Shown here: in pieces, positions 8,940 to 61,538 of the stretch
Numbering within the stretch: the stretch's first letter is position 1
Layout of the letters: each line of letters opens with the position of its first letter
The notes under the pieces: generated by a model
Seen by the model: the letters and a program-made list of their open reading frames with translations, nothing else
What the model was told of the DNA's origin: nothing
Databases searched by the model: none
Position numbers and translations under genes: made by a program
Sequence record: OL310488.1
Direction: 5' to 3' (one strand)
DNA length: 64,000 nucleotides
Source of the DNA: Escherichia phage EC101

Positions 8940-9269
8940 ATGAACAAGTTAGAAATTGTCAATGAACTTCGTCGCTGTGTAGAACCTACTCAAGAGGGTT
9001 GGGACATCTGGTACCATGGAGCTTATCTTGGAACTATCGTAAAGATTAAGACTGGTAAATACATGATTATTCGTGAAAGTAAAGATGCTCCAGTAGGTAT
9101 TCGCAATAATTTTATGGCAGCGATAAGTTCATTTACGGATGCAGCTTACGAAATTTACCTTGCTGATTATAAAGAATTTCAGGAATCTCAACCAGTTATT
9201 CGTTCAATTGGTGTTAACAAAGCTCAACAGAAAACTTTATGGCAACGTATTAAAGGATGGTTTAAATGA
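8940..9269 (+). CDS. hypothetical protein (109 aa)
   Basis: ORF in a tightly packed early operon; no recognisable domain. Confidence 0.6.
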
Positions 9270-9727
9270 ACCCATTTATTAATCGTTTAAAAATGCTGAA
9301 TGTTCCTTTATGTCGTGAAACTCCAGAAAGTCTTGTTGAAAAATTTAAAGCGCATGGTTATAAATGCACAGAAGAAGATATTCTAAAAGAAGTTCCTGAA
9401 ATCTGTTGGCAGACCGCATACTGGGATGAAAACCAAAAGTATCAACGACGAATTGTTTGTGCCGCCAACCGTTTTAAATTAAAAGATGGACGAACTCTTG
9501 TTATTCCAGGTGCTCGTCATTATTCTAAAGATATGGCAGAAGTTTTAGATGTAGTTAAACCCCAATTAGTTACTCAGCAAGTTTGTGATGATGACCAAGG
9601 GTTTATTGATCAGTATAGCAATTACTGGACACGTGAAGAAGCAATGATTATTGCAACTTACGCCGGACAAGTACGTATTGAACGCGGTGGTAGTGAAAAA
9701 GAACTTTACTCTGAGGACCTTTACTAA
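9266..9727 (+). CDS. hypothetical protein (153 aa)
   Basis: ATGA-overlapped start; no recognisable domain. Confidence 0.6.
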
Positions 9728-11678: not shown

Positions 11679-11709
11679 AGACCCTCCTTTTAGGGGTATT
11701 TATTCAAAA

Positions 11710-12507
11710 TTATACTCTTGGACCATATATTACTCCAACATTTTGCCAAGTTGGAGCAGATCCTATGACAGCATAACCTGCTGCTCCTCCTGCACCAACC
11801 TTTAGAACTTTACCACCATCAGACCAGGCATTTTGTCCATTTCCTCCGGCATCGCCGCCCTGGCCAGAGTGAGCATTTCCGTATTGGTAACCACCTCCTG
11901 GGGCGACGTATGAAGCTGCGCCACCTGAGTAACCACCGCCACCACCTGGGCCAAATGGTCTTCCGCCGCCACCACCAATATCTTGCCAGTTTGCCCCTGA
12001 GTGAACACGGTAAGCAATGCCGCCACCACCGCCTCCGCCACCACAGATTACTCCACCATTGTTAATTCTTAATCGTCCACCAATGTCGTTTTGAATACAA
12101 TGCCCGCCTTGTTGTCCATTACCATCTCCACCGGAATGAGTCCATCCACCTTGTCCACCTCTACCCCACATATGAGCGCCAATAATATTTAACTGAACAT
12201 ATTCATTTGGTGTATCTCCGTACATGAAGAATAAAGGAACATCTTTAGAATATGATACTAAATCACCTGTAATATTAAACACTATAGGTGCATTACCTGC
12301 CTCAAAACATCTATCTCGGAACCATTGACCATTGAAGTTATGGTCTGCTCCAAGCGTGTGAATAATTTCTCGTGAGCGACCTGCAAATTGACTCATCCAG
12401 CAAGGAACACCCAATCTTAATTGACCAGCCGCTTGACTCATCCAGCGCTGACCCGTTTCATTTACGGATGAACTTCCAATCCAACCGGGAACACCAACTA
12501 CTGCCAT
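11710..12507 (-). CDS. 38: gp38 distal tail fibre adhesin, T2/T6 type with glycine-rich motifs
   Basis: 265 aa from the first ATG (GGAG SD 7 nt upstream); N-terminus [13 protein letters not shown]...; several poly-Gly runs (GGGGGGGG) separated by variable segments. Confidence 0.8.
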
Positions 12508-12539
12508 AATTATCTCCAAAGGGGCAAAGCCCCTTGTTG

Positions 12540-15524
12540 TTAGAATTTAAAATAATTACTAATTTTGCGAGCAATTTTAGTGAAGAAAGGCGTTTTTAAT
12601 TCTTTAATTTCTTCGCTCATTTCTTGGATAGCCTTAATTAAAAGAGCATTTACAGCGGAGTTAGAAATTGTCAGAACATCAGAACCATCAACTTCAACTT
12701 TAGACACAGCTTCCGGTAATTCCTTTTCAAGGTCCTGAGCAATAATACCAACTTCGCGTTTAATAACACTACGGTCTTTAATAGACTTAACCTTATCGTA
12801 AATATAAACTTTCAGTCGGCATACTTTTTCAAGTGCTCCGTTTTCTAGCTCTTTTTTATTAATCTTAAGACGACCATCGGAACGAATATACACATCGTTA
12901 AAGTTACCATTACCAGGAGAATAGAAAGTACCGTCGTAATGAAATTCAAATACCGCGTTAGGGTGTCCAGTCGCTGGCGATGCCTCTGCAGATCCAACAC
13001 GAATAATTGCTTGCCCCCAATTGTTAGGGACACGACGAATACCAAGATCGACGGCAGTTACAAACCCTTGATTGGTGATTACACTTTTTCCTTTAATAAT
13101 TGGATAATAACAATCCTGTGAAACATAACCATGATCGACGAATAATGGAGCTTCTACTCGCCATTGGTTGCCCCAATCACCCGGTTGTCTAGCAATCCAT
13201 CCAGAACCGTTAATGTGTACACGATCGCGGTTAACGTTAACCATTGCGATATTTTGTGGATTTAGCGAAATCTCACCATTGTTTGTGATATGTACTGCCG
13301 CCTGAGTAGCATAGCTATAAAATGCTAGCGAATTATCAGCACCACCCTTACCAATATACCAGTTACCACTCCCGTCTACGTCACCACGAATATGCAAAGC
13401 ATTACCAGCAGTTGTTGATAATACAATAGAATCACCCGGACGTTTAATAATCAATCTACCTTCGGATTCAACTTCACCAAAGAATTTAGTTTTAATTGCA
13501 CCAGTCGCTAAAGTACGTTCAGTGGAAAAATGAACGCCTTTGCTGTCTTCTAACTGAATAATGTTATCGCGCGCATTATTACTATCACCCCAATGGTTAA
13601 ATTTAAAATAATCTCGTGATCCTAAACGTCCGGCATCAAAAGTCATCAAGCCTTTTATATTAATATCACCACCAAAAAATGCGGTGAGAGAATCGCGTTT
13701 TAATTTTAAAACGTTAGCACCACTAGTACCACCCAAAGTAACATCACCAGTTCTTAATTCATAACGGAAAGGTCTATTTGTATTAAAGTTTCCATCTTGA
13801 TCATTTTCGTCGGTGGAAAGAATATAAAGACTCTCTCCATCATTACGGAAAATTGTACCAAATTTTCCGCCATACATACGGAATGCATTAGATGAGCGGA
13901 ATTTAACTTCTGTTTTAAATGTGGTAGTGTTATTAAGGTTAACAGTAGAGTTAAAATTGGTAGGAGCACCGAAGTTAACAGCACCATTAAAATCTTGTTG
14001 AGCTGTCCATGTGTGGCGACCATCTTCAAGAACAACACGGCGGACTGTGCAAGTTCTATTTCCAGAATTACCGAACACACGAACGACAAAATAACGGTAG
14101 TTTGTCTGGGATACAGTACCGCGCCAAACCTGAACAGTACGCCCTGTGCTAGTGTGTTCACTAGGACCAACGGAAAACATAACCAGGTTTCCGTCAATCG
14201 TCCCCCAATCCATATTTGCTGGCATGTTCTTTATTTTGTTCAAAGGAACGCTAAACATACTACCAGGAACAAAATCAAAGGTTTGCCAATCTAACTCCGC
14301 TAATTGAGCTTTAATACCACCCATACCCAAAGTAATTGGAAGAGAATAAGATGTATATACTTCGTTCCATGCACCCCACGCACCACCAGTATATGCACGC
14401 TCAAAAATACGATCGCGAGTAGTTGCACCCGTTCCGGCAGTAGTAAATTTTTGGAAAATAGCACCACCAGAAGCACGCTGTTTAACTTCCAGCAAACCAA
14501 CAATAACGGCTGGTAAACCTTCACCAGTAGGACAGTTAATAACGGCATCAGTGCCTAAAATGTTATATAACCCAGGAGTTTTAAAATCATTCAGATCTCC
14601 ATCATAGAAAGTCGCTGGTGTGCCATGACCAACCTGCTTCCATTCCTCCCACTTAGGTGCACTAGCATCCCATGCAGCAGCGAGACAACGAGTATAAACC
14701 ATACCCATGCGGGTAGTATAACGCTGCGTTCTTGTGTATAAACCACCTTCAAATATTTCTAAAAATCCTTGTGCGGCTGATCCTTCTTCTGGATAATGGC
14801 GATCAAATGATGCGATTGCGCTTGAACTGTTTCTCCATAAGCCACAATGTTCTAATTCTCCCAAGCTATCAAGGTCAATCGTTTGTGAAAGTGGACGAGT
14901 TGACGCTTGAACATTACGCCACACACCCCATGGACCATCGACGCCATTCCATTTAGCAGATAAGGAACGAATATAGACGTTACCAGATCTTACAGTATAA
15001 CGCTGAGTGCCAGCAAATTGGCCGGCCACAAATACTTCTAGTACACCTACGGCATTTTCTTCTGGGAATTTATTTGCTGGTTGCGCATTTGTTGAAGTAG
15101 ATTTCGACCAAACACCAAGATATTCTTCAATGGGCCCATACGTATCTAAATTAGCATCAGTAGGTAATTCGCCATTATTTTTTATAAATGTTGTGCTATT
15201 GACATTTATGTCAGATGGAGTTAAGGTAATGTCCTTTGACCCATCAAAAGATATACCATTAATTTTCCTAGGTGTTTGCAATTTAGTAGCTGTGCTAGAA
15301 TTTCCAATTAAAGTTCCAGTTATATTTTCTGTAACCTCTAAAGACCCATTTATAGTTCCTCCATATTTTAAACCTAATTCTATAACACTACCTGAGTCAT
15401 CTTTTGTGAAAATTGTTTTATCTTTTAAGTTTATAGCCAATTCACCTTCGGCTAATACTGAAGCAGCAGGACGTTGACCTGCAGTTTTGCTTCTTTTAAA
15501 TTGTATTTGTTTTAAAGTAGCCAT
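12540..15524 (-). CDS. 37: gp37 long tail fibre distal subunit
   Basis: 994-aa ORF immediately upstream of gp38 and downstream of gp36; fibrous repeat-rich sequence. Confidence 0.9.
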
Positions 15525-23505: not shown

Positions 23506-23506
23506 T

Positions 23507-23530
23507 TGCTTATTATAAATAGATTATAAT
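23507..23530 (+). promoter_or_regulatory. gene 32 middle promoter (MotA box TGCTTA, 12 bp, TATAAT) overlapping a late promoter TATAAATA at 23514..23521
   Basis: motifs read directly; T4 gene 32 is known to have middle and late promoters. Confidence 0.55.
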
Positions 23531-23538
23531 TATCTCAC

Positions 23539-23604
23539 TGACCAGCTATGAGGTCATACATCGTCATAGCACCAACTGTTAATTAAATTAAAAAGGAAAT
23601 AAAA
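23539..23604 (+). promoter_or_regulatory. gp32 translational operator (H-type pseudoknot plus unstructured A/U-rich leader)
   Basis: stems GACC/GGTC and GCTATGA/TCATAGC interleaved, followed by TTAATTAAATTAAAAAGGAAATAAAA-ATG; corresponds to the known autoregulatory site of T4 gene 32. Confidence 0.7.
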
Positions 23605-25705: not shown

Positions 25706-26061
25706 ATGTCTGACATTCGTGTAGCTGGAATTGCTCGAGTAAGTATTCGTTGCCAACTTAAAACTGCACCTGGGACGGCTTATATTAATTTATCACACGA
25801 CCTATGTTCTAGTGAAAGACAGTTAACAGGTGTAATTACATTTTACGCTGGATTTGGCGGAAACGAATTTACTGTAGGCGAATTTGTTGGCTGTAAATTA
25901 AAAGTTCAGAAGAACGTATTAGAACTTTTTAATGACCTTTACGATGATAGTGATGAAGTTTTTGATGAAATCGCACAAGCAGTTAACAGAGGAATGGTAA
26001 CTTTAGTTAAAATGATTAAAGATAGCGGATTTGCTTCTGGCCCCTTTCAGTGGGAGGTAAT

Positions 26062-26065
<4 letters not shown>
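25706..26065 (+). CDS. hypothetical protein (119 aa)
   Basis: AAGGAAAATAAT-ATG. Confidence 0.6.
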
Positions 26066-27090
<1,025 letters not shown>

Positions 27091-27091
<1 letters not shown>

Positions 27092-27639
27092 TGAAACAAT
27101 ACCAATTTTTAATTAAAGATATCCTGGAAAATGGCTACGAAACCGATGACCGAACAGGCACAGGAACAATTGCTTTGTTCGGTACTAAATTACGCTGGGA
27201 TTTAACTAAAGGTTTTCCTGCAGTAACAACTAAGAAGCTCGCCTGGAAAGCTTGCATTGCTGAGCTGCTTTGGTTTTTATCGGGAAGCACAAATGTCAAT
27301 GATTTGCGATTAATTCAACATGATTCGTTAATCCAAGGCAAAACAGTTTGGGATGAAAATTACGAAAATCAAGCAAAAGATTTAGGATACCATAGCGGTG
27401 AACTTGGTCCAATTTATGGAAAACAGTGGCGTGATTTTGGTGGTGTAGACCAAATTATAGAAGTTATTGATCGTATTAAAAAATTGCCAAATGATAGGCG
27501 TCAAATTGTTTCAGCATGGAATCCAGCTGAACTCAAGCAGATGGCATTACCGCCTTGTCATATGTTCTATCAGTTTAATGTGCGTAATGGCTATTTGGAT
27601 TTGCAGTGGTATCAACGATCAGTAGATGTTTTCTTGGGT
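27091..27639 (+). CDS. td: thymidylate synthase, exon 1
   Basis: sequence MKQYQFLIKDILENGYETDDRTGTGT...; exon ends ...CTTGGGT at the group I 5' splice site. Confidence 0.9.
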
Positions 27640-28655
27640 TAATTGAGGCCTGAGTATAAGGTGACTTATACTTGTAATCTATCTAAACGGGGAACCTCTC
27701 TAGTAGACAATCCCGTGCTAAATTGTAGGACTGCCCTTTAATAAATACTTCTATATTTAAAGAGGTATTTATGAAAAGCGGAATTTATCAGATTAAAAAT
27801 ACTTTAAACAATAAAGTATATGTAGGAAGTGCTAAAGATTTTGAAAAGAGATGGAAGAGGCATTTTAAAGATTTAGAAAAAGGATGCCATTCTTCTATAA
27901 AGCTTCAGAGGTCTTTTAACAAACATGGTAATGTGTTTGAATGTTCTATTTTGGAAGAAATTCCATATGAGAAAGATTTGATTATTGAACGAGAAAATTT
28001 TTGGATTAAAGAGCTTAATTCTAAAATTAATGGATACAATATTGCTGATGCAACGTTTGGTGATACATGTTCTACGCATCCATTAAAAGAAGAAATTATT
28101 AAGAAACGTTCTGAAACTGTTAAAGCTAAGATGCTTAAACTTGGACCTGATGGTCGGAAAGCTCTTTACAGTAAACCCGGAAGTAAAAACGGGCGTTGGA
28201 ATCCAGAAACCCATAAGTTTTGTAAGTGCGGTGTTCGCATACAAACTTCTGCTTATACTTGTAGTAAATGCAGAAATCGTTCAGGTGAAAATAATTCATT
28301 CTTTAATCATAAGCATTCAGACATAACTAAATCTAAAATATCAGAAAAGATGAAAGGTAAAAAGCCTAGTAATATTAAAAAGATTTCATGTGATGGGGTT
28401 ATTTTTGATTGTGCAGCAGATGCAGCTAGACATTTTAAAATTTCGTCTGGATTAGTTACTTATCGTGTAAAATCTGATAAATGGAATTGGTTCTACATAA
28501 ATGCCTAACGACTATCCCTTTGGGGAGTAGGGTCAAGTGACTCGAAACGATAGACAACTTGCTTTAACAAGTTGGAGATATAGTCTGATCTGCATGGTGA
28601 CATGCAGCTGGATATAATTCCGGGGTAAGATTAACGACCTTATCTGAACATAATG
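27640..28655 (+). mobile_element. group I self-splicing intron (td intron, 1016 nt) carrying the I-TevI ORF
   Basis: intron starts TAATTGAGGCCTGAGTATAAGGTGACTTATACTTGTAATCTATCTAAACGGGGAACC... and ends ...TAAGATTAACGACCTTATCTGAACATAATG, as in the T4 td intron; splicing restores a 286-aa TS reading frame. Confidence 0.9.
27771..28508 (+). CDS. I-TevI: I-TevI GIY-YIG homing endonuclease (intron-encoded)
   Basis: 245-aa ORF inside the intron; N-terminal GIYQIKN...YVGSAKDF...R motif (GIY-YIG); zinc finger CKCG...CSKC; AAAGAGG SD. Confidence 0.9.
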   Translation: MKSGIYQIKNTLNNKVYVGSAKDFEKRWKRHFKDLEKGCHSSIKLQRSFNKHGNVFECSILEEIPYEKDLIIERENFWIKELNSKINGYNIADATFGDTCSTHPLKEEIIKKRSETVKAKMLKLGPDGRKALYSKPGSKNGRWNPETHKFCKCGVRIQTSAYTCSKCRNRSGENNSFFNHKHSDITKSKISEKMKGKKPSNIKKISCDGVIFDCAADAARHFKISSGLVTYRVKSDKWNWFYINA

Positions 28656-28967
28656 CTTCCATTTAATATTGCATCATATGCTGCGTTAGTTCATATTGTA
28701 GCTAAGATGTGTAATCTTATTCCGGGAGATTTGATATTTTCCGGTGGTAATACTCATATCTATATGAATCACGTAGAACAATGTAAAGAAATTTTGCGTC
28801 GTGAACCTAAAGAGCTTTGTGAACTGGTAATAGGCGGATTGCCTTATAAATTCCGCTATCTTTCTACTAAAGAACAATTGGAATACATTCTTAAACTCAG
28901 GCCTAAAGATTTCGTTCTCAAAGATTATCAGTCCCACGGCGTCTTGAAAGGAAAAATGGCGGTGTAA
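28656..28967 (+). CDS. td: thymidylate synthase, exon 2
   Basis: LPFNIASYAALVHIVAKMCNLIPGDLIFSGGNTHIYMNHV... continues the TS frame directly after the intron. Confidence 0.9.
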   Translation, partial: LPFNIASYAALVHIVAKMCNLIPGDLIFSGGNTHIYMNHVEQCKEILRREPKELCELVIGGLPYKFRYLSTKEQLEYILKLRPKDFVLKDYQSHGVLKGKMAV

Positions 28968-29254: not shown

Positions 29255-29534
29255 ATACAAATCCGACTTTGATGTGAATATTCACCGTGGTACATTTTGG
29301 GGAAATTACGTCGGTAAAGATGCTGGCAGCCGGGAGGCTGCCATTGAATTATTCAAAAAAGATTTTATACGTCGAATTAAATCCGGAGAAATAACTAAAG
29401 CACATTTAGAGCCTTTACGTGGAATGAGGCTAGGATGCACATGTAAACCAAAGCCGTGTCATGGTGATATAATAGCTCATATAGTTAACCGACTGTTTAA
29501 AGACGATTTTCAAGTTGAGGACTTATGCAATTAA
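29208..29534 (+). CDS. hypothetical protein (108 aa) with C-terminal GCTCKPxPCHGD motif
   Basis: ORF overlapping the previous one by 47 nt; start uncertain; the Cys/His motif suggests a small metal-binding domain. Confidence 0.5.
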
Positions 29535-31789
29535 TTAATGTTATCAAAAGTAGTGGTGTTTCTCAGAGCTTTGACCCGCAAAAAATTATTAAAGTTTTAT
29601 CTTGGGCATCTGAGGGAACATCAGTAGATCCTTATGAATTATATGAAAATATTAAATCATATCTCCGTGATGGAATGACAACTGATGACATTCAGACTAT
29701 TGTCATTAAGGCTGCTGCGAATTCTATTTCGGTTGAAGAGCCTGATTATCAATATGTAGCTGCACGCTGTTTAATGTTCGCTCTTCGTAAGCATGTTTAT
29801 GGGCAGTATGAACCACGTTCATTTATTGACCATATTTCTTACTGTGTAAATGAAGGTAAATATGACCCTGAATTATTGTCAAAATATTCAGCAGAAGAAA
29901 TTACATTTTTAGAATCAAAAATTAAGCACGAGCGGGATATGGAATTTACTTATTCCGGGGCGATGCAATTAAAAGAAAAATATCTAGTTAAAGATAAAAC
30001 CACTGGTCAAATTTATGAAACTCCACAGTTTGCATTTATGACTATTGGAATGGCATTGCATCAAGATGAACCTGTTGATAGATTAAAACATGTTATCCGT
30101 TTTTATGAAGCGGTATCTACTCGACAGATTTCATTACCAACTCCTATTATGGCTGGTTGCCGTACTCCAACTCGGCAGTTTAGTTCATGCGTTGTTATTG
30201 AGGCAGGCGATTCACTGAAGTCTATCAATAAGGCTTCTGCTTCAATTGTTGAATATATCTCTAAACGCGCTGGAATTGGTATTAACGTTGGTATGATTCG
30301 TGCTGAAGGTTCTAAGATTGGCATGGGTGAAGTACGCCATACTGGTGTTATTCCTTTTTGGAAACATTTTCAGACTGCTGTTAAATCATGCTCACAGGGT
30401 GGAATTCGTGGCGGCGCTGCTACTGCTTATTATCCTATTTGGCATTTGGAAGTTGAAAATCTTCTTGTTTTGAAAAATAACAAAGGCGTAGAAGAAAACC
30501 GTATTCGTCATATGGATTATGGTGTTCAACTGAATGATTTGATGATGGAACGTTTTGGAAAGAACGATTACATTACTTTGTTCAGTCCCCATGAAATGGG
30601 CGGAGAGCTTTATTATTCTTATTTTAAAGACCAAGACCGTTTCCGTGAATTATACGAAGCAGCAGAAAAAGACCCTAATATTCGTAAAAAGCGTATTAAA
30701 GCCCGTGAACTATTTGAATTGCTCATGACTGAACGCTCAGGAACAGCAAGAATTTATGTACAGTTCATTGATAATACGAATAACTATACTCCGTTTATTC
30801 GTGAAAAGGCACCTATTCGTCAGAGTAACTTGTGCTGTGAAATTGCTATTCCAACAAATGATGTGAATAGTCCTGATGCTGAAATTGGATTGTGTACTCT
30901 CTCTGCATTCGTACTAGATAATTTTGACTGGCAAGACCAAGATAAAATTAATGAATTGGCAGAAGTTCAAGTTCGTGCTCTTGATAATCTGTTGGATTAC
31001 CAAGGATATCCAGTTCCTGAAGCAGAAAAAGCTAAAAAGCGTCGTAACCTCGGTGTAGGTGTTACCAACTATGCAGCTTGGCTGGCAAGTAACTTTGCTT
31101 CTTATGAAGATGCTAATGATTTAACACATGAACTATTTGAGAGATTACAGTATGGACTCATTAAAGCATCCATTAAGCTCGCCAAAGAAAAAGGACCTTG
31201 CGAATATTATTCAGACACTCGTTGGTCTCGAGGCGAATTACCTATCGACTGGTACAATAAAAAGATTGACCAAATCGCAGCTCCAAAATACGTTTGTGAC
31301 TGGTCGGCGCTGCGGGAAGACCTTAAGCTCTTTGGCATCCGTAATAGCACATTATCAGCACTTATGCCATGTGAGTCATCTTCCCAAGTTTCTAACAGTA
31401 CAAACGGTATCGAGCCTCCACGTGGACCAGTCTCTGTTAAAGAATCAAAAGAGGGTTCCTTTAATCAAGTCGTGCCCAATATTGAGCATAACATAGACCT
31501 TTACGACTATACATGGAAATTAGCTAAGAAAGGTAATAAACCTTATCTTACGCAGGTAGCTATTATGCTGAAATGGGTTTGTCAATCAGCTTCGGCGAAT
31601 ACATATTATGACCCGCAGATTTTTCCAAAAGGAAAGGTTCCAATGTCTGTAATGATTGATGACATGCTATACGGATGGTATTATGGCATTAAAAACTTCT
31701 ACTATCATAATACTCGTGATGGTTCCGGTACTGATGATTATGAAATAGAAACTCCAAAAGCCGATGATTGCGCAGCGTGTAAATTGTAA
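29525..31789 (+). CDS. nrdA: aerobic ribonucleoside-diphosphate reductase, alpha subunit
   Basis: 754-aa ORF, identical in length to T4 NrdA; ATP-cone N-terminus and class I RNR catalytic motifs. Confidence 0.95.
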   Translation: MQLINVIKSSGVSQSFDPQKIIKVLSWASEGTSVDPYELYENIKSYLRDGMTTDDIQTIVIKAAANSISVEEPDYQYVAARCLMFALRKHVYGQYEPRSFIDHISYCVNEGKYDPELLSKYSAEEITFLESKIKHERDMEFTYSGAMQLKEKYLVKDKTTGQIYETPQFAFMTIGMALHQDEPVDRLKHVIRFYEAVSTRQISLPTPIMAGCRTPTRQFSSCVVIEAGDSLKSINKASASIVEYISKRAGIGINVGMIRAEGSKIGMGEVRHTGVIPFWKHFQTAVKSCSQGGIRGGAATAYYPIWHLEVENLLVLKNNKGVEENRIRHMDYGVQLNDLMMERFGKNDYITLFSPHEMGGELYYSYFKDQDRFRELYEAAEKDPNIRKKRIKARELFELLMTERSGTARIYVQFIDNTNNYTPFIREKAPIRQSNLCCEIAIPTNDVNSPDAEIGLCTLSAFVLDNFDWQDQDKINELAEVQVRALDNLLDYQGYPVPEAEKAKKRRNLGVGVTNYAAWLASNFASYEDANDLTHELFERLQYGLIKASIKLAKEKGPCEYYSDTRWSRGELPIDWYNKKIDQIAAPKYVCDWSALREDLKLFGIRNSTLSALMPCESSSQVSNSTNGIEPPRGPVSVKESKEGSFNQVVPNIEHNIDLYDYTWKLAKKGNKPYLTQVAIMLKWVCQSASANTYYDPQIFPKGKVPMSVMIDDMLYGWYYGIKNFYYHNTRDGSGTDDYEIETPKADDCAACKL

Positions 31790-32520
31790 TGAATTATCAA
31801 AAAATCTATAACGACCTAATTTCCCGAGCTCAGGCTCGGGAATCTTTACTAGAATATAAAGAGACACATCATATAATCCCTAAATGTATGGGAGGTTCTG
31901 ATGATAAGGAAAATTTAGTTGAATTAACAGCCAGAGAACATTTTATAGCTCATCTATTACTATGTAAGATAAATGAAGGCCATTTTGGTCTTGCCTCTGC
32001 GTTAACGTTAATGGCAACAGATAAAGCTGGCAATAGAATTAATAACAGATTGTACAGCTTACACAGAAAATTATTTGCTAAAGCTAATTCTGAGTTCTTT
32101 AAGAAATATTGGAAAAATAATCCTCATCCTAAAGGGATGCTAGGCAAGCATCATAAAAACGAAACTAAACAGCATGTATCTAACGTGAATAGATATGCGT
32201 GCCCATCTGTAGAAATACATAAATTCTCATTAGATGGGGATTTCATAGAAACCTTTCACTCTATTGCGGCAGCGTCCCGGTCAGTTAATGGAAACGGGTC
32301 AAATATCAAATATTGTGCCGAGGGTAAATTTCAATATGCTTATGGATTTAGATGGTCATATCAACTTGATGCAAAGTTTGACAAAATAAAACCAAGAGAT
32401 TATAAAGGAATCCGCGGTAAGAAATGGATTAATAATGGAAGTGAATGCACGCTTATAGGTAAAGATGATATTATACCGCTAGGTTGGAAACACGGCAGAA
32501 TTTTAAAGAGGAAAAATTAA
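31789..32520 (+). CDS. mobE: free-standing HNH homing endonuclease (MobE-like)
   Basis: 243-aa ORF between nrdA and nrdB with overlapping start and stop codons; HNH motif HHIIPKCMGGSDDKENLVELTAREHFIAH. Confidence 0.8.
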   Translation: MNYQKIYNDLISRAQARESLLEYKETHHIIPKCMGGSDDKENLVELTAREHFIAHLLLCKINEGHFGLASALTLMATDKAGNRINNRLYSLHRKLFAKANSEFFKKYWKNNPHPKGMLGKHHKNETKQHVSNVNRYACPSVEIHKFSLDGDFIETFHSIAAASRSVNGNGSNIKYCAEGKFQYAYGFRWSYQLDAKFDKIKPRDYKGIRGKKWINNGSECTLIGKDDIIPLGWKHGRILKRKN

Positions 32521-33698
32521 TGTCTACAGTTTTTAATACAAATCCAGTTGATGTTTTAAAAGAACCTATGTTTTTTGGTTCAGGTCTTGGTATTGCGCGT
32601 TATGATATTCAACGTCATAAAGTTTTTGAAGATTTAACCGAAAAGCAATTATCATTTTTCTGGCGTCCTGAAGAAGTAAACTTGATGATGGATGCTGCAC
32701 AGTTTAATAAGCTTCCTCAGTACCAGCAAAATATTTTTACTAACAACCTGAAGTATCAATCACTTTTAGATAGCATTCAGGGTCGTGCGCCGTCTGCTGT
32801 ACTTATGTCATTAATTTCAGACCCAAGTCTTGATACATGGGTTGCTACATGGACTTTTAGTGAAACTATTCACAGTCGTTCATATACTCATATCATGCGA
32901 AATCTTTATACTGATCCATCGAAGGTATTTGATGAGATTGTATTAGATGAAGCTATTATGAAACGTGCTGAATCCATTGGACGTTATTATGATGATGTTC
33001 TGATTAAAACTCGTTATTGGGAAAACGCTAAAGCTGATATCGAATACCAAAAAGAAATTAATGCAGACGAAGACGTTATTGAAGATGCTATTGAGCATGA
33101 GACATATTGGAAGCGTGAGCTAATGAAATCTCTTTACCTCTGTTTGCATGTAATCAACGCATTGGAAGCTATTCGTTTTTATGTATCTTTTGCATGTACC
33201 TTTAACTTCCATAAGAACATGGAAATCATGGAAGGTAATGCCAAGATTATGAAGTTCATTGCACGCGATGAACAGCTTCACCTTAAAGGCACCCAATATA
33301 TTATTCGTCAACTTCAATCTGGTACTGATGGCGATCAATGGGTTAAAATTGCTCAAGAGTGTGAACAAGAAGCAGTTGATATTTTCATGGAAGTTAACCG
33401 CCAAGAAAAAGATTGGGCAGTTCATTTATTTAAAGATGGAGATGTTCCTGGATTAAATACAAATAGCATGTGGAGCTTTATTGATTACTTAACTGTATCT
33501 CGTATGAAACAGTGTGGTCTTCCATGCCCAATTACCGATGCTCCGGTTAAACATCCATATCCTTGGATTCGTGAATATCTTAATTCTGATAATGTTCAAT
33601 CCGCGCCACAAGAAGTAGAACTGTCATCTTATCTTGTTGCACAGATTGATAATGATGTTGATGATAAAGTTATGATGAGTTTTAAAAAATACTTTTAA
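32520..33698 (+). CDS. nrdB: aerobic ribonucleoside-diphosphate reductase, beta subunit (uninterrupted, no intron)
   Basis: 392 aa from the ATG overlapping the mobE stop; sequence MSTVFNTNPVDVL...; continuous reading frame. Confidence 0.95.
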   Translation: MSTVFNTNPVDVLKEPMFFGSGLGIARYDIQRHKVFEDLTEKQLSFFWRPEEVNLMMDAAQFNKLPQYQQNIFTNNLKYQSLLDSIQGRAPSAVLMSLISDPSLDTWVATWTFSETIHSRSYTHIMRNLYTDPSKVFDEIVLDEAIMKRAESIGRYYDDVLIKTRYWENAKADIEYQKEINADEDVIEDAIEHETYWKRELMKSLYLCLHVINALEAIRFYVSFACTFNFHKNMEIMEGNAKIMKFIARDEQLHLKGTQYIIRQLQSGTDGDQWVKIAQECEQEAVDIFMEVNRQEKDWAVHLFKDGDVPGLNTNSMWSFIDYLTVSRMKQCGLPCPITDAPVKHPYPWIREYLNSDNVQSAPQEVELSSYLVAQIDNDVDDKVMMSFKKYF

Positions 33699-33703
33699 GG
33701 AGT

Positions 33704-33719
33704 GGGCCGCAAGGCCCAT
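33704..33719 (+). other. GC-rich hairpin (TGGGCC-GCAA-GGCCCA) between nrdB and denA, followed by TTTTATT
   Basis: perfect 6-bp stem with GNRA loop sitting between an AAGGAG SD-like element and the denA ATG. Confidence 0.6.
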
Positions 33720-33725
33720 TTTATT

Positions 33726-35313
<1,588 letters not shown>

Positions 35314-36744: not shown

Positions 36745-36748
<4 letters not shown>
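36512..36748 (+). CDS. hypothetical protein (78 aa)
   Basis: overlapping start and stop codons within the operon. Confidence 0.6.
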
Positions 36749-37966
<1,218 letters not shown>

Positions 37967-38696: not shown

Positions 38697-39224
38697 ATGA
38701 GCGAATGGTTTGAAGAAGATAAGGTTTATCGCTTTAAAACTGGGTATAAAGATATTTTTAATGAAACTTGCGGGGCTAATAAACGAATTGCCCAGTTTAT
38801 TGGGGAAAATTCATTTAAAGTAAAAATAGATCCTGCGAAAAATGTTATTAGCATTAAACGCGAAATTGATGATTGTTGGTATAAAGCTGTTGATGTAATG
38901 GGTGAATCCTATAAAGTTAGCCCGTTATTTTCAATTGCTTATATGTTAGAATATTCTTTTTTCGAAGAAGTTCAAAAAGATGATTCTGTAAGTAAATTTG
39001 AAATTAAAACTGATAAAGAAATTAAGTGGAAAGTAGTAGGTATTACTGGTTGTATGTTCTATATCTATGCTCAAACTGATACGAAGGAAGAAGCTAAAAA
39101 GAAAGCTCTAGAATATCTTGAAGAGCATGAAGAAGGCCCGGTAATGATTACCCAAGATGCTGAATTAGTTTCTGTCAAATTAGTTAAAAACGTTGAAAGT
39201 AAGGAGCTGGGATCAACATGCTAA
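38697..39224 (+). CDS. hypothetical protein (175 aa)
   Basis: GAGGAAATTGAA-ATG; no recognisable domain. Confidence 0.65.
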   Translation: MSEWFEEDKVYRFKTGYKDIFNETCGANKRIAQFIGENSFKVKIDPAKNVISIKREIDDCWYKAVDVMGESYKVSPLFSIAYMLEYSFFEEVQKDDSVSKFEIKTDKEIKWKVVGITGCMFYIYAQTDTKEEAKKKALEYLEEHEEGPVMITQDAELVSVKLVKNVESKELGSTC

Positions 39225-49034: not shown

Positions 49035-51092
49035 ATGGAACTTATTACAGAATTATTTGACGGCGCTTCGGCGCCGGTTGTTAACTTAAATCCTAAGCAT
49101 AAAATACCACAAATTTTTGCTATTCAAGCCGGCGAAGAAAGCGTGCTTCCTGGATTTAGATTTTGTACATATACCTCTGGTGGTGATACGAATAAAAACG
49201 TTAAGCCAGGCGATAAAATGATGCATATCGTAATGATAGGTGTTAATGAGAAACTATCATTAGTTAAGCTTAAAAACTTGGGTGGAAATCCAATTGGTGT
49301 CATTAATGCCGTTTTTGATACTGCTCTTCAAACAATGAAACAGTATAAAATCGACGCATGCCTATTCCGCGTACTAAAAAGTAAAACAAATGGCGCAGCT
49401 CGTCAAATGCAAGTTATTGCTGACCGTTTAGTACGTACTAAAGGAGCAGGTCGATATGTTCTTTTAAAGGAAATCTGGGACTATGATAAGAAATATGCAT
49501 ATATTATGGTTTACCGTAAAAATGCCAATTTAGAAGACATTCCAGGTGTACCTCCTATTTCAACTGAGTTATTCACAAAAGTTGAATCAAAGGTTGGTGA
49601 TGTTTATGTAGATGTTAAAACAGGTAATGCTGTTCCTAAAGCTGTTGCTGTTGCTGCTTCTATTGCTTTAGAAAATGATAAGCGCACGGACCAAGCTGTT
49701 ATTCAGAAAACTAAAATTAGTCGTCGATTAGCAGCACAAGCTCAATATTCTACTGTTGATGCTTCACTTCAGGGTGATAGCTTCGCTGCTAAGAAATATC
49801 AAGAGTTTGAATCTAAAGTTCCGGTATATAAAGCAGAAGGTCCGATGAACTCTGGCGTTATCCAGATTGGTTCAAACTTCAGCAAAGGAGCTATCGGTGG
49901 TATGAGAAGTGCTTCTCGTTTTAAATCTAACGATTATGAACTAGAAAGCTTCCGAAATCATATTGCATTGGCCCATGCACGTTTACGTGATCCATCTATC
50001 AAGTTGCAGAGCGATATAACATATCAAGGTTCTCAAGAATATTTAAAGAATAAAGAATTCTTTGATTATAAAACTGATAAAATTTTAAGCGATCTTGCTG
50101 ACATTAATATTTCTAATAGCTTTGATGTTATTAAGAAAATTATTAATGATTTAGTTAAAGGTTCTAAAACCACACCAGATGAAAAGACAGCTATTATTCA
50201 ATTTGTCATGAATGGCATTTATAAATTGATTAATGAATCTGCTGCCCAGGCATATGAATACGCAAGCACCGAAGTAGCTCCAAAAGGACTGACTCAGGCT
50301 GAATCTGATGTAATTGAAGATTATTGTGCAGATTCATATGTTGAAATGAACTCGTTCCTTTTGGGTAAACCAGATTCTACCCGTGAAGAATATATGGAAC
50401 GAGCTATTAAGCACATCGAGACGTTGGATTCTGCATTCGCTAAAGGTTCAGTTCTTCCTCCAGGAACTACGCTTTATCGTGGACAAGAAGTTACCTTTAA
50501 AACTTTGCGTCATAACATTGAAAACAAAATGTTCTATTTCAAGAACTTCGTATCCACATCGCTTAAACCAAATATATTCGGTGAGCATGGTAAAAACTAT
50601 ATGGCTCTAGATGATTCTGGCGCAGTATTTTCTGGCGAAGGAGAAGGTTCCGTTGATGCAGAAGATTTGATGCATATGGGTAGTCATTCTACATATGCTA
50701 ATGAAGATGCTGAAACTAGCGTGGGTATGGTAATTAAAGGAGCTGAGCGAATCAAAGTTATCGTTCCAGGTCATTTATCAGGATTTCCATCAGAAGCTGA
50801 AGTTATTCTACCACGTGGAATTTTACTGAAGATTAATAAAGTAAGTACTTACTTTATGAAAGAAACTGCTTATAACAAGTATCTAATCGAAGGTACAATC
50901 GTTCCTCCTTCTGAACAATTAGAAGAATCAGTATATGATGGAGACCATCTAATGGAAACTGGTGAAGTTCGTCCAATGGCTGGATTTAATCAATTCCTTG
51001 TAGAAGAATCAAAAGAAGAGGAAAATGAAGTTTCTCAAATCTTAGCTTCTTTGGTTAACATCAACGGAATGTCTAAAAAGTTCAAAATGTAG
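49035..51092 (+). CDS. Alt-like ADP-ribosyltransferase paralog (second copy, divergent central region)
   Basis: 685-aa ORF 3 nt after alt; N-terminal about 210 aa and C-terminal ART core (LYRGQ, FVSTSL, EVILPRG) are clearly homologous to Alt; the middle is diverged. Confidence 0.85.
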   Translation: MELITELFDGASAPVVNLNPKHKIPQIFAIQAGEESVLPGFRFCTYTSGGDTNKNVKPGDKMMHIVMIGVNEKLSLVKLKNLGGNPIGVINAVFDTALQTMKQYKIDACLFRVLKSKTNGAARQMQVIADRLVRTKGAGRYVLLKEIWDYDKKYAYIMVYRKNANLEDIPGVPPISTELFTKVESKVGDVYVDVKTGNAVPKAVAVAASIALENDKRTDQAVIQKTKISRRLAAQAQYSTVDASLQGDSFAAKKYQEFESKVPVYKAEGPMNSGVIQIGSNFSKGAIGGMRSASRFKSNDYELESFRNHIALAHARLRDPSIKLQSDITYQGSQEYLKNKEFFDYKTDKILSDLADINISNSFDVIKKIINDLVKGSKTTPDEKTAIIQFVMNGIYKLINESAAQAYEYASTEVAPKGLTQAESDVIEDYCADSYVEMNSFLLGKPDSTREEYMERAIKHIETLDSAFAKGSVLPPGTTLYRGQEVTFKTLRHNIENKMFYFKNFVSTSLKPNIFGEHGKNYMALDDSGAVFSGEGEGSVDAEDLMHMGSHSTYANEDAETSVGMVIKGAERIKVIVPGHLSGFPSEAEVILPRGILLKINKVSTYFMKETAYNKYLIEGTIVPPSEQLEESVYDGDHLMETGEVRPMAGFNQFLVEESKEEENEVSQILASLVNINGMSKKFKM

Positions 51093-59997: not shown

Positions 59998-61509
59998 TTA
60001 TAAATTAACTGTTTTCATTACGTAATTAAATTTTTCATCTGCGTAGCGCTGAATACGATCAATGCCGTGTTTTAAAAGATAGTTCAAGTGAACATATTTC
60101 TTTTTAGTATTAGCAGATTTTGGCTTGACACCACAGTCATCTATGAGGTCCCAGACTGTTGCGATTGTTTTAGAACCATGTTTACGTAATACGCGACCTA
60201 TTGTTTGCAATACAATAATTTTAGATTTAACACCGTGTGCTAAAACAACGTGATGCAGATTTTTAACTGAAATACCAGTAGAAAATACACCATAACTAGC
60301 TACTATAATTATTCCTTTACCGTTTTCAGCTAAGGTTTTCATTATATTGCGGGTTTCGGTATCAACTTCCCCTGATACGTAATAAACTTTATCGTATTCA
60401 TTTTTAATTAAATCGAAAATAGCTTTACCGTGCGATACGTGTTTAAACATGACAAAAGCGTTTTCATCTTTTTGTGCAAGCTTAATAGCTAATTTAGCGA
60501 TCCATTTATTTCTTTTACTAAGCCCAGTAATAATTTTTATTTCTTCTTGGTAAGTTTTTCCCTTTAATTTAGTAGTGAACTCATCGGGATAGCGAAGAAA
60601 AATACTATTAATTTTTAACTCAGTTACTTGTCCATCTTCCATTAATTTAGAGGTCGTTACTGGCTTAAATATTTCACCGAACATTCCAACATACTGCATG
60701 ATATTAGCTTTGCCATCACGTAATGAACCAGACAAACCGAATTTGAACATGCAGTTATTTAAACCTGATATGATGGATGAAATACTTTTTCCTGTAGCAA
60801 GATGGCATTCATCATTCATCATCATTCCAAACTGTGAGAACCATTCTTTCGGTTGTTTTACTACAGTTTGCCATGTACCAACAACGACCGGTGCATCATT
60901 TTTATATTTATCATCTTTTGATGCTCCACCACCGATTTTCTTTATCATTGCATGACTGAATAAACGATAGTCAACAAAGTCATCAGCCATCTGAGTTGTC
61001 AGAGCAGTTGTTGGAACAATAATAAGAATTTTGCCTTCATAATTTTCCAAATAATACCGAGCAAGCAAAGCTTGAATTAAAGATTTACCTGCGGATGTTG
61101 GAAGATTAAGAATTCTACGACGATTAACTAATCCTTCGAACACTGCATCTTTTTGATACCAGTGTGGTTCAATTCTTTTATTTCCTGAATAGATTTCTAA
61201 TTTAGAAAGCCATTCATCAAAATCTTTTCTTGATAATTCTTCTTTTTCGTTAATTTGTGGGTCAATCCAGGCTTTATAGCCAAAGTTATCACAGAACTTT
61301 TTAATTTGCCCGACTAAGCCGAATGGAAGAAGACGATTATAATCTAACAGACGGATTCGTCCATCCCAGTGGCCATATCTGTACTTCGGATTAAAACGAT
61401 ACCCATCAGCTTCAAAGCTAAAGAAATCACGGAGTTCATGAAATGTACTTTCTTCACAATCAATTCTCACGTGACTAAAATCATAAAAATGTACTTTAAT
61501 GTCAGTCAT
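59998..61509 (-). CDS. uvsW: UvsW DNA/RNA helicase (SF2)
   Basis: 503-aa ORF; Walker A GKS (LPTSAGKSL), DECH box (MMNDECH); T4 UvsW is 502 aa. Confidence 0.95.
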   Translation of the reverse strand: MTDIKVHFYDFSHVRIDCEESTFHELRDFFSFEADGYRFNPKYRYGHWDGRIRLLDYNRLLPFGLVGQIKKFCDNFGYKAWIDPQINEKEELSRKDFDEWLSKLEIYSGNKRIEPHWYQKDAVFEGLVNRRRILNLPTSAGKSLIQALLARYYLENYEGKILIIVPTTALTTQMADDFVDYRLFSHAMIKKIGGGASKDDKYKNDAPVVVGTWQTVVKQPKEWFSQFGMMMNDECHLATGKSISSIISGLNNCMFKFGLSGSLRDGKANIMQYVGMFGEIFKPVTTSKLMEDGQVTELKINSIFLRYPDEFTTKLKGKTYQEEIKIITGLSKRNKWIAKLAIKLAQKDENAFVMFKHVSHGKAIFDLIKNEYDKVYYVSGEVDTETRNIMKTLAENGKGIIIVASYGVFSTGISVKNLHHVVLAHGVKSKIIVLQTIGRVLRKHGSKTIATVWDLIDDCGVKPKSANTKKKYVHLNYLLKHGIDRIQRYADEKFNYVMKTVNL

Positions 61510-61538
61510 GTCTAAATACCATGTAATAAATATATCTA

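Follow-up and report, generated by a model that had tools for sequence, protein, structure and literature searches.

Does the interrupted thymidylate synthase gene (td) of Escherichia phage EC101 hold a working mobile group I intron, and does the uninterrupted nrdB gene of the same phage offer that kind of element a ready target? Both parts of this question were addressed within a single window, the whole 64,000-nucleotide stretch of DNA analysed here (record OL310488.1), and all of the features described below lie on its plus strand. The td intron of the T-even phages, which the literature assigns to subgroup IA2, is the most thoroughly studied of all mobile group I introns.

The td gene and its splice boundaries

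Exon 1 of td (27091..27639, 549 nt) ends in TTCTTGGGT and is colinear with the td genes of T4, RB27 and T2. It is followed by the intron (27640..28655, 1016 nt), which starts with TAATTGAGG and ends with ACATAATG. The first codon of the intron, directly after TTC TTG GGT, is an in-frame TAA (27640-27642), and the reading frame resumes at 28656 (CTT CCA TTT AAT) in exon 2, which starts with CTTCCATTTAAT and runs to the end of the gene (28656..28967, 312 nt including the stop codon). Joining 27091-27639 to 28656-28967, which is the correct td model for annotation, yields an 861-nt ORF encoding a thymidylate synthase of 286 aa plus stop. The joined exons align without gaps to the spliced td of T4 and to the uninterrupted td of T2 and RB27, and the encoded protein differs from T4 Td at 14 amino acids. 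Translation starts at the ATG at 27091, not at the TTG at 27079 given in the mechanical ORF list. A preliminary description of this DNA had placed a 1016-nt intron between 27639 and 28656; that split proved to be exact, with a spliced frame colinear with intron-less alleles, and both the CTTGGGT given as the end of exon 1 and the ACATAATG given as the end of the intron are found where it had put them. In many deposited relatives, td is annotated as two 'thymidylate synthase' genes together with a 'hypothetical protein'.

The ribozyme core

Helix P1 is formed by the exon bases UUGGGU (27634-27639) and the internal guide sequence GCCUGA (27648..27653), with a U27639/G27648 wobble at the 5′ splice site; the pairing was read directly from the sequence and from L004, whose identical 5′ part was aligned to the Rfam model. 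At the other end the intron closes with CAUAAUG, placing a G at 28655, as for the terminal G of group I introns. The remainder of the core was folded by minimum free energy (MFE) and centroid methods, using the ORF-less intron of a sister phage and a construct of the window intron from which the ORF had been removed. Helices P2, P3, P4, P5, P6/P6a, P8 and P9 were recovered in the folds of these ORF-less forms. The 5′ half of the core (27654..27731) contains, from the folds, the P2 hairpin (27654-27671), the 5′ strand of P3 (UCUAUC, 27678-27683), P4 (27687-27692 with 27711-27716), P5 (27697-27699 with 27705-27707) and the 5′ strands of P6 (27717-27718) and P6a (27724-27731). The 3′ strands of P6 (28503-28504) and P6a (28489-28497) lie inside the last codons of the intron ORF, which encodes I-TevI; the T4 element has been described with this same overlap. 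The 3′ half (28509..28655) contains the 3′ strand of P3 (GAUAGA, 28549-28554), P8 (28555-28574) and J8/7 (28575-28581), all placed by the Rfam alignment of the window as well as by folding, then the 3′ strand of P7 (AGUC, 28582-28585) and P9 with its GUGA loop (28590-28607), after which come the peripheral P9.1 and P9.2. The Rfam model omits the P7 pseudoknot helix, so P7 is a putative assignment, with GACU at 28539-28542 as the probable partner strand.

A chance find on a metagenomic phage contig (L013) provided a homologous intron that is only 69% identical. By eye, from its alignment and folds, paired substitutions in this intron keep P2, P3, P8, P9 and P9.2, with compensatory changes such as UCUAUC/GAUAGA to CUAUCC/GGAUAG and CAACUUG/CAAGUUG to GCCCUU/AAGGGU.

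The preliminary description had suggested a covariance-model search for group I introns, and this gave a sub-threshold match locally and none at the scale of the window. An Rfam scan of the whole 64 kb returned no family at the gathering threshold, nor at E <= 0.01. When only the 1.3 kb at 27500-28800 were scanned, Intron_gpI (RF00028) matched below threshold (42.5 bits, E=3.5e-9; cut-off 50), in an alignment where only the 3′ half of the td intron is properly placed. The 320-nt intron of Yersinia phage PYps55T, an ORF-less sister with the same core, scored 66.9 bits over the full Intron_gpI model (cut-off 50). We attribute the lower score of the window intron to the 757-nt ORF-bearing loop in P6a, which splits the core, and the covariance-model evidence for the window intron leans partly on this sister copy. 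The earlier assignment to group I stands on the near-identity to the T4 td intron, P1, the terminal G and the core folds. More generally, the lack of an Rfam hit is not to be read as the lack of an intron when that intron carries an ORF.

I-TevI and its regulatory signals

The ORF looped out of P6a (27771..28508) encodes I-TevI, a protein of 245 aa. It is identical to T4 I-TevI (NP_049849) at 245/245 residues and contains three Pfam domains, all scoring over their cut-offs: GIY-YIG (residues 3-90), I-TevI_ZnF (149-179) and I-TevI_DNA-bd (192-242). Solved structures of I-TevI are matched as well, 1mk0 and 1ln0 by residues 1-97 and 1i3j by residues 130-245. With no residue changed from T4 and all three diagnostic domains present, the intact 245-aa GIY-YIG homing endonuclease claimed in the preliminary description is confirmed.

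Signals that may control this gene lie just ahead of it. One is an operator-like site, TAGGACTGCCCTTTAATAAA (27725-27744), which in the best ungapped alignment agrees with the td homing site at 14/20 positions. It overlaps a late-promoter-like AATAAATA (27740-27747; joint span 27725..27747), which we take to be a late promoter from its likeness to the T4 late consensus TATAAATA. A hairpin is predicted at 27744..27769, where AAUACUUCU pairs with AGAGGUAUU (RNAfold of 27735-27780, -13.0 kcal/mol), and would bury the I-TevI ribosome-binding site (RBS) GAGG at 27762-27765. The RBS hairpin and the operator-like site of T4 are the same as those of the window. For T4, the operator, autorepression by I-TevI and the RBS hairpin in long early and middle transcripts have been described (PMC2988022). 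According to the same source, cleavage of intron-less td by I-TevI falls at a CNNNG motif, 23 and 25 nt upstream of the point where the intron inserts (PMC2988022). Exon 1 of the window has such a motif, CAACG, at 27613..27617 (-27 to -23 relative to the insertion point). CAACG occupies this position in the intron-less td of T2 and RB27 also; a check of intron-less alleles of relatives for an I-TevI site was among the suggestions of the preliminary description.

Judging from its sequence, the element at 27640-28655 is almost certainly the canonical mobile group I intron of T-even td genes, and belongs to the T4/T6 family. Its boundaries, intact core, intact endonuclease, putative regulatory motifs and signature of horizontal spread (see below) can all be read from the DNA, and its function is deduced from near-identity to the experimentally studied T4 element. 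By analogy, the intron would be transcribed within the td pre-mRNA and would fold into a P1-P9 ribozyme, which would excise itself through two guanosine-initiated transesterifications at U27639|U27640 and G28655|C28656 and so restore the 286-aa thymidylate synthase. As in T4, I-TevI would be kept silent early by the RBS hairpin; late in infection it would be expressed from the intron-internal promoter, and, following the work on T4, I-TevI itself would repress that promoter at the overlapping operator. During mixed infection with an intron-less phage, I-TevI would bind the empty td site and cut at CAACG, 23/25 nt upstream, and repair from the intron-bearing genome would then copy the intron across, and with it some of the neighbouring exon sequence.

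The nrdB locus

The nrdB gene (32520..33698) is one uninterrupted ORF of 392 aa, in which the T4/RB3 intron site is empty at 33195/33196 (TCTTTTGCAT/GTACCTTTAAC). The T4/RB3-type nrdB intron, which carries I-TevIII (an active enzyme in RB3), is absent from this gene; alignment with T4 shows just one clean gap of 598 nt at 33195|33196, in agreement with the earlier reading of nrdB as continuous. The flanks of the empty site match the T4 exon junction at 39/40 positions. The window therefore differs from T4 in the way the preliminary description had said, since T4 has both introns and the window that of td only; T4 also has segG and segE, which, like the nrdB intron, are missing from the window.

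However, the noteworthiness that the description implied for this td+ nrdB- state does not survive comparison with other phages. T6 (MH550421) has the same layout, with a 1016-nt td intron encoding I-TevI, mobE between nrdA and nrdB, and an nrdB with the same intron-less junction as the window. The closest sequenced relatives of the window, fFiEco06 and PYPS2T, are also td+ nrdB-, and are without mobE. In the phage collection, the full td intron is present in 196 records and the nrdB intron in 118 (>=80% coverage), so at least 78 records must be td+ nrdB-, a state that makes up a large share of deposited T4-like genomes. In the literature, the entries for T6 and LZ2 each give a single GIY-YIG endonuclease encoded in an intron and none of the HNH type (Table 5, PMC2993671), and T2 is without the nrdB intron (PMC2790892). 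Intron occurrence among T-even phages has been described as variable since 1987-89, and this variability was the first hint that the introns are mobile (references 11 and 12 of PMC2988022). The td+ nrdB- observation is thus correct, already known and ordinary, and its biological weight is small because the arrangement was already known from T6. nrdB simply lacks the other intron of T4, a state found also in T6 and many further relatives.

The description had also said that this intron complement gives a clean natural substrate for intron homing. This is plausible, with an nrdB junction that matches that of T4, but it overlooked a mobE-family gene and the divergent 5′ part of nrdB. The former is a free-standing gene for an HNH endonuclease (31789..32520, 243 aa) between nrdA and nrdB. 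Residues 1 to about 60 of its product are near-identical to the MobE proteins of T4 and T6, and BLASTP aligns it with T4 MobE at 62% identity over 110 aa and with T6 MobE at 65% over 103 aa. Past about residue 105, BLASTP found no similarity to T4 or T6 MobE; a Pfam NUMOD1 domain (147-177) stands in place of the T4/T6-like C-terminus. The T6 protein has 213 aa against 243 aa in the window, and only the N-terminal ~100 residues are common to both. A weak Pfam HNH match (19.8 bits against a cut-off of 21.4) and a PHROG homing-endonuclease family (E=4.8e-57) were also found. The window protein thus does not share the C-terminal (DNA-binding) region of T4 or T6 MobE, and hence would not share their target.

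In two patches, at 32580-32700 and 33000-33120, nrdB diverges sharply from its T4 and T6 counterparts. In the first of these, identity to T4 is 72-82%, against ~97% elsewhere in the gene. T4 MobE acts on the nrdB of T2 within its first 189 nt (PMC2790892). The patch at 32580-32700 falls in this MobE-acting region, and the idea of a clean substrate therefore has to be tempered. Might nrdB, then, not be a gene that was never invaded, but one that lost its intron precisely, or one that is protected and hence no ready substrate for homing? The mobE-family gene lies directly upstream, and the first patch resembles the outcome of a past endonuclease-driven exchange or of target-site immunity. However, nrdB contains no remnant of intron sequence, its junction is that of T4 at all positions but one, and nothing in the sequence hints at resistance to I-TevIII. 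We regard precise loss or protection as unlikely, albeit deserving of consideration, and prefer the reading in which nrdB merely lacks the T4 intron. Even so, the nrdB locus is no simple naive recipient.

Comparison with T4 and T6, and spread of the intron

The window intron and the T4 td intron (NC_000866) occupy the same site in the same gene and share the ORF-in-P6a architecture. They differ at 3/1016 positions (99.7% identity): at 27731/27732 the window has one T fewer than this T4 record, 27902 within the ORF shows a synonymous G/A difference, and 28588 an A/C difference. The last of these lies between P7 and P9, and the window carries the base of the Rfam consensus. That the shorter intron (1016 against 1017 nt) has an altered operator was considered and rejected, because T6 and other T4 records have the 1016-nt form and the extra T is peculiar to NC_000866.4. 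Compared with the td intron of T6 (MH550421), only 1/1016 positions differs, at 27902.

These comparisons bear on whether decay has reduced the intron or its endonuclease to a relic, with td inactive or poorly spliced, or I-TevI dead. Decay is known in this lineage, the I-TevI ORF having been lost in PYps55T, C2-3, UPWr_E2, MLP2 and Shinka, and the truncated I-TevIII of the T4 nrdB intron is a parallel case of a decayed endonuclease. However, the ORF of the window is complete and encodes the active T4 enzyme without a single amino-acid change, and of the three nucleotide differences from T4 one is synonymous, one a consensus base and one specific to a single T4 record. A relic is accordingly very improbable, and an active element is the reading that we retain.

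In the exons the differences are far greater. Exon 1 differs from that of T4 at 29/549 positions (5.3%), -22 among them, and exon 2 at 37/312 (11.9%), with +3 and +6 among these; relative to T6, 119/861 exon positions differ, mostly towards the 3′ end. Among phage records, 289 match the td intron; of these, 196 hold the full element and 193 match at >=99% identity. Copies that are 100% identical are found in many deposited phages, and the exons of the intron-bearing records span a wide range of identity. An intron that differs by 0.1-0.3% across phages whose exons differ by 5-12% fits horizontal spread by homing. One alternative is that the T4-like intron (~99.7%) came to lie in non-T4 exons (88-95% identical to T4) through a chimeric assembly or through laboratory T4 DNA as a contaminant. 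This has next to no credibility: the intron is nearer to T6 than to T4, at least nine independent records from different laboratories (PYPS2T, fPS-90, PYps11T and a15 among these) share all 2001 bp of exon, intron and exon at 100% identity, and homing is expected to leave just such a conserved intron between divergent exons. A group I intron encoding a GIY-YIG endonuclease, I-BmoI, has been reported at the equivalent insertion site in thyA of Bacillus mojavensis; it differs from the window element in its bacterial host and in the sequences of both intron and endonuclease.

Exon-end bases and a possible homing cycle

In the intron-bearing alleles of the window, T4, T6 and PYps55T, exon 1 ends in TTC TTG GGT (TTCTTGGGT). 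The corresponding bases of the intron-less alleles are TTT CTT GGT in T2 (TTTCTTGGT) and TTT CTC GGC in RB27 (TTTCTCGGC), which are synonymous. From base pairing, the exon ends of T2 and RB27 would weaken P1, as they would pair less well with the guide sequence. The exon bases that pair with the guide belong to the 22 nt that separate the insertion site from the I-TevI cut, and would normally be replaced in the course of homing. Moreover, since the intron-less ends would make for a weaker P1, natural homing must presumably carry over 7 nt or more from the end of exon 1 by co-conversion. The difference from T4 at -22 (27618, A in the window and C in T4) was considered as a sign that a co-conversion tract stops, on its left, exactly at the I-TevI cut; this was rejected because T6, T2, RB27 and PYps55T all have A and T4 is the odd one out. 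The edge of the tract cannot be placed between -43 and -7.

The ORF-less sister phages PYps55T (MT515756), C2-3, UPWr_E2, MLP2 and Shinka have a 320-nt td intron from which the I-TevI ORF is deleted, within exons that are 99.5-99.8% identical to those of the window. PYps55T has 2 exon differences from the window in 861 nt, at the same insertion site and with the same ribozyme core sequence. Such ORF-less introns cannot promote their own homing. The exon allele of the window is found with the full mobile intron in the window itself, PYPS2T and fPS-90, and in the phage collection all of the closest exon alleles (99.5-100% identical) have either the full or the ORF-deleted intron. An empty copy of this exon allele was not found in that collection, where the nearest intron-less allele is 96.5% identical. 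It is conceivable, and we suggest it tentatively, that the window represents one stage of a homing cycle that runs within a single td allele lineage. If so, cleavage at some distance from the insertion site would ensure that, whenever the intron moves, the exon bases required for splicing move with it.

Genomic setting

The window is syntenic with ~110,100-168,903 of T4 plus the start of the T4 record; nrdD, from its place on the T4 map, presumably falls outside the matching range. For the nrdA-nrdB segment, identity to deposited records reaches 99.0% at most, and no deposited genome is an exact match for td plus nrdA-nrdB. Relative to T4, the window also contains several small ORFs of unannotated PHROG families, an alt-like extra segment and a replaced tail-fibre tip.

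A mobE-like endonuclease gene beside an nrdB with divergent patches

The interval between nrdA and nrdB (window 31789-32520, plus strand) is occupied by a free-standing HNH endonuclease gene encoding 243 aa. The first ~60 aa of the protein are near-identical to MobE of both T4 and T6. However, its C-terminal part is unrelated to that of either protein and contains a NUMOD1 motif. With a MobE-like N-terminus joined to an unrelated, NUMOD1-bearing C-terminus, this gene looks, from its sequence, like a domain-swapped mobE variant. A query spanning 31400-33900, which includes the mobE variant, is covered to at least 80% in at least 57 phage records. Among the matches listed, most records label the variant merely as a 'homing endonuclease'.

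The adjacent, intron-less nrdB contains two patches that diverge sharply from both T4 and T6. Identity falls to 72-82% in the first (32580-32700) and to 53-63% in the second (33000-33120), which also contains indels, compared to ~97% across the rest of the gene. T4 MobE is known to nick T2 nrdB within the first 189 nt (PMC2790892), and the first patch falls within this same region. Judged from these alignments, this patch may reflect target-site immunity or exchange tied to the mobE variant.

Variation in the td intron

The td intron in the T4 reference record (NC_000866.4) is 1017 nt in length because it reads GGACTTGCCC at intron positions 93-94 (window 27731/27732) in place of the GGACTGCCC shared by the window and T6. 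The extra T is located in the operator region of I-TevI, and may be either a sequence error or a strain variant of that record. In Yersinia phage PYps55T the td intron is only 320 nt (1501-1820), I-TevI having been deleted, and this shortened form is found in sister phages whose td exons are nearly the same as those of the window. In phages FL18 and vB_EcoM-G28, only ~45% of the T4-type sequence was matched in the td intron and yet a homing endonuclease is still annotated there, which suggests that these two phages carry a different ORF within the same intron.

A more distant homologue was found in a T4-like metagenomic contig (IMGVR_UViG_3300001091_000001), where td contains an ORF-less group I intron of 265 nt (9155-9419). 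This intron shares 69% identity with the td intron of the window, shows compensatory changes in its helices and has the same terminal sequence, ...GAACATAATG. It interrupts td directly behind ...WHQR, at a point that lies 21 nt upstream of the insertion site used in T4 and 2 nt downstream of where I-TevI cuts the top strand. The guide sequence of the intron is altered to fit its new exon (GCGC against exon GCGU). No report of this td insertion site was found in the literature searched.

Routine covariance-model scans are blind to ORF-bearing introns. An Rfam scan of the full 64-kb window gave no match at the gathering threshold, despite the presence of a bona fide group I intron, and likewise none with E values up to 0.01. 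The intron was picked up only by a local scan of 1.3 kb, with a score below threshold.

Other differences from T4 and a close relative

Both segG, which lies between 59 and 32 in T4, and segE, which adjoins uvsW, are missing from the window, where just ~20-36 nt are found at the corresponding positions (23506-23542 and 61503-61523). Across the compared stretch, the endonuclease genes of the window phage number two, namely I-TevI and the mobE variant, against five in T4. For ~1.7 kb of the window (49382-51073), T4 offers no direct counterpart. This segment is ~69% similar to the alt gene and is apparently a second gene of the alt type, at a place where T4 has only the short remnants alt.-1 and alt.-2. 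The T4 comparison gave no T4-like match at 11703-15370, the segment equivalent to gene 38 and the end of gene 37, which encode the distal tail fibre. This is a host-range cassette replacement of the kind usual among T-even phages.

Small ORFs also separate the two genomes. Between frd and td the window has a 68-aa ORF (26885-27091, plus strand), its stop overlapping the td start (TAATG). T4 lacks this ORF, and its frd and td run directly into each other, with 4 nt in common by their annotated CDS coordinates. The 68-aa ORF matched no Pfam family and was assigned to PHROG 9550, a family of unknown function. Three further small plus-strand ORFs, with no equivalent at the same places in T4, lie between frd.1 and frd (25706-26307), adjoining pseT (36745-37065) and between cd.2 and cd.3 (38697-39224). 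PHROG places all three in families of unknown function, and none of them resembles an endonuclease.

Lastly, nrdA is intact in the window (29525-31789). In the close relative Yersinia phage PYPS2T (11526-13917), the annotation splits the gene into two overlapping CDS, and its span exceeds that of the window gene by ~127 nt, suggesting an insertion or frameshift in PYPS2T nrdA.
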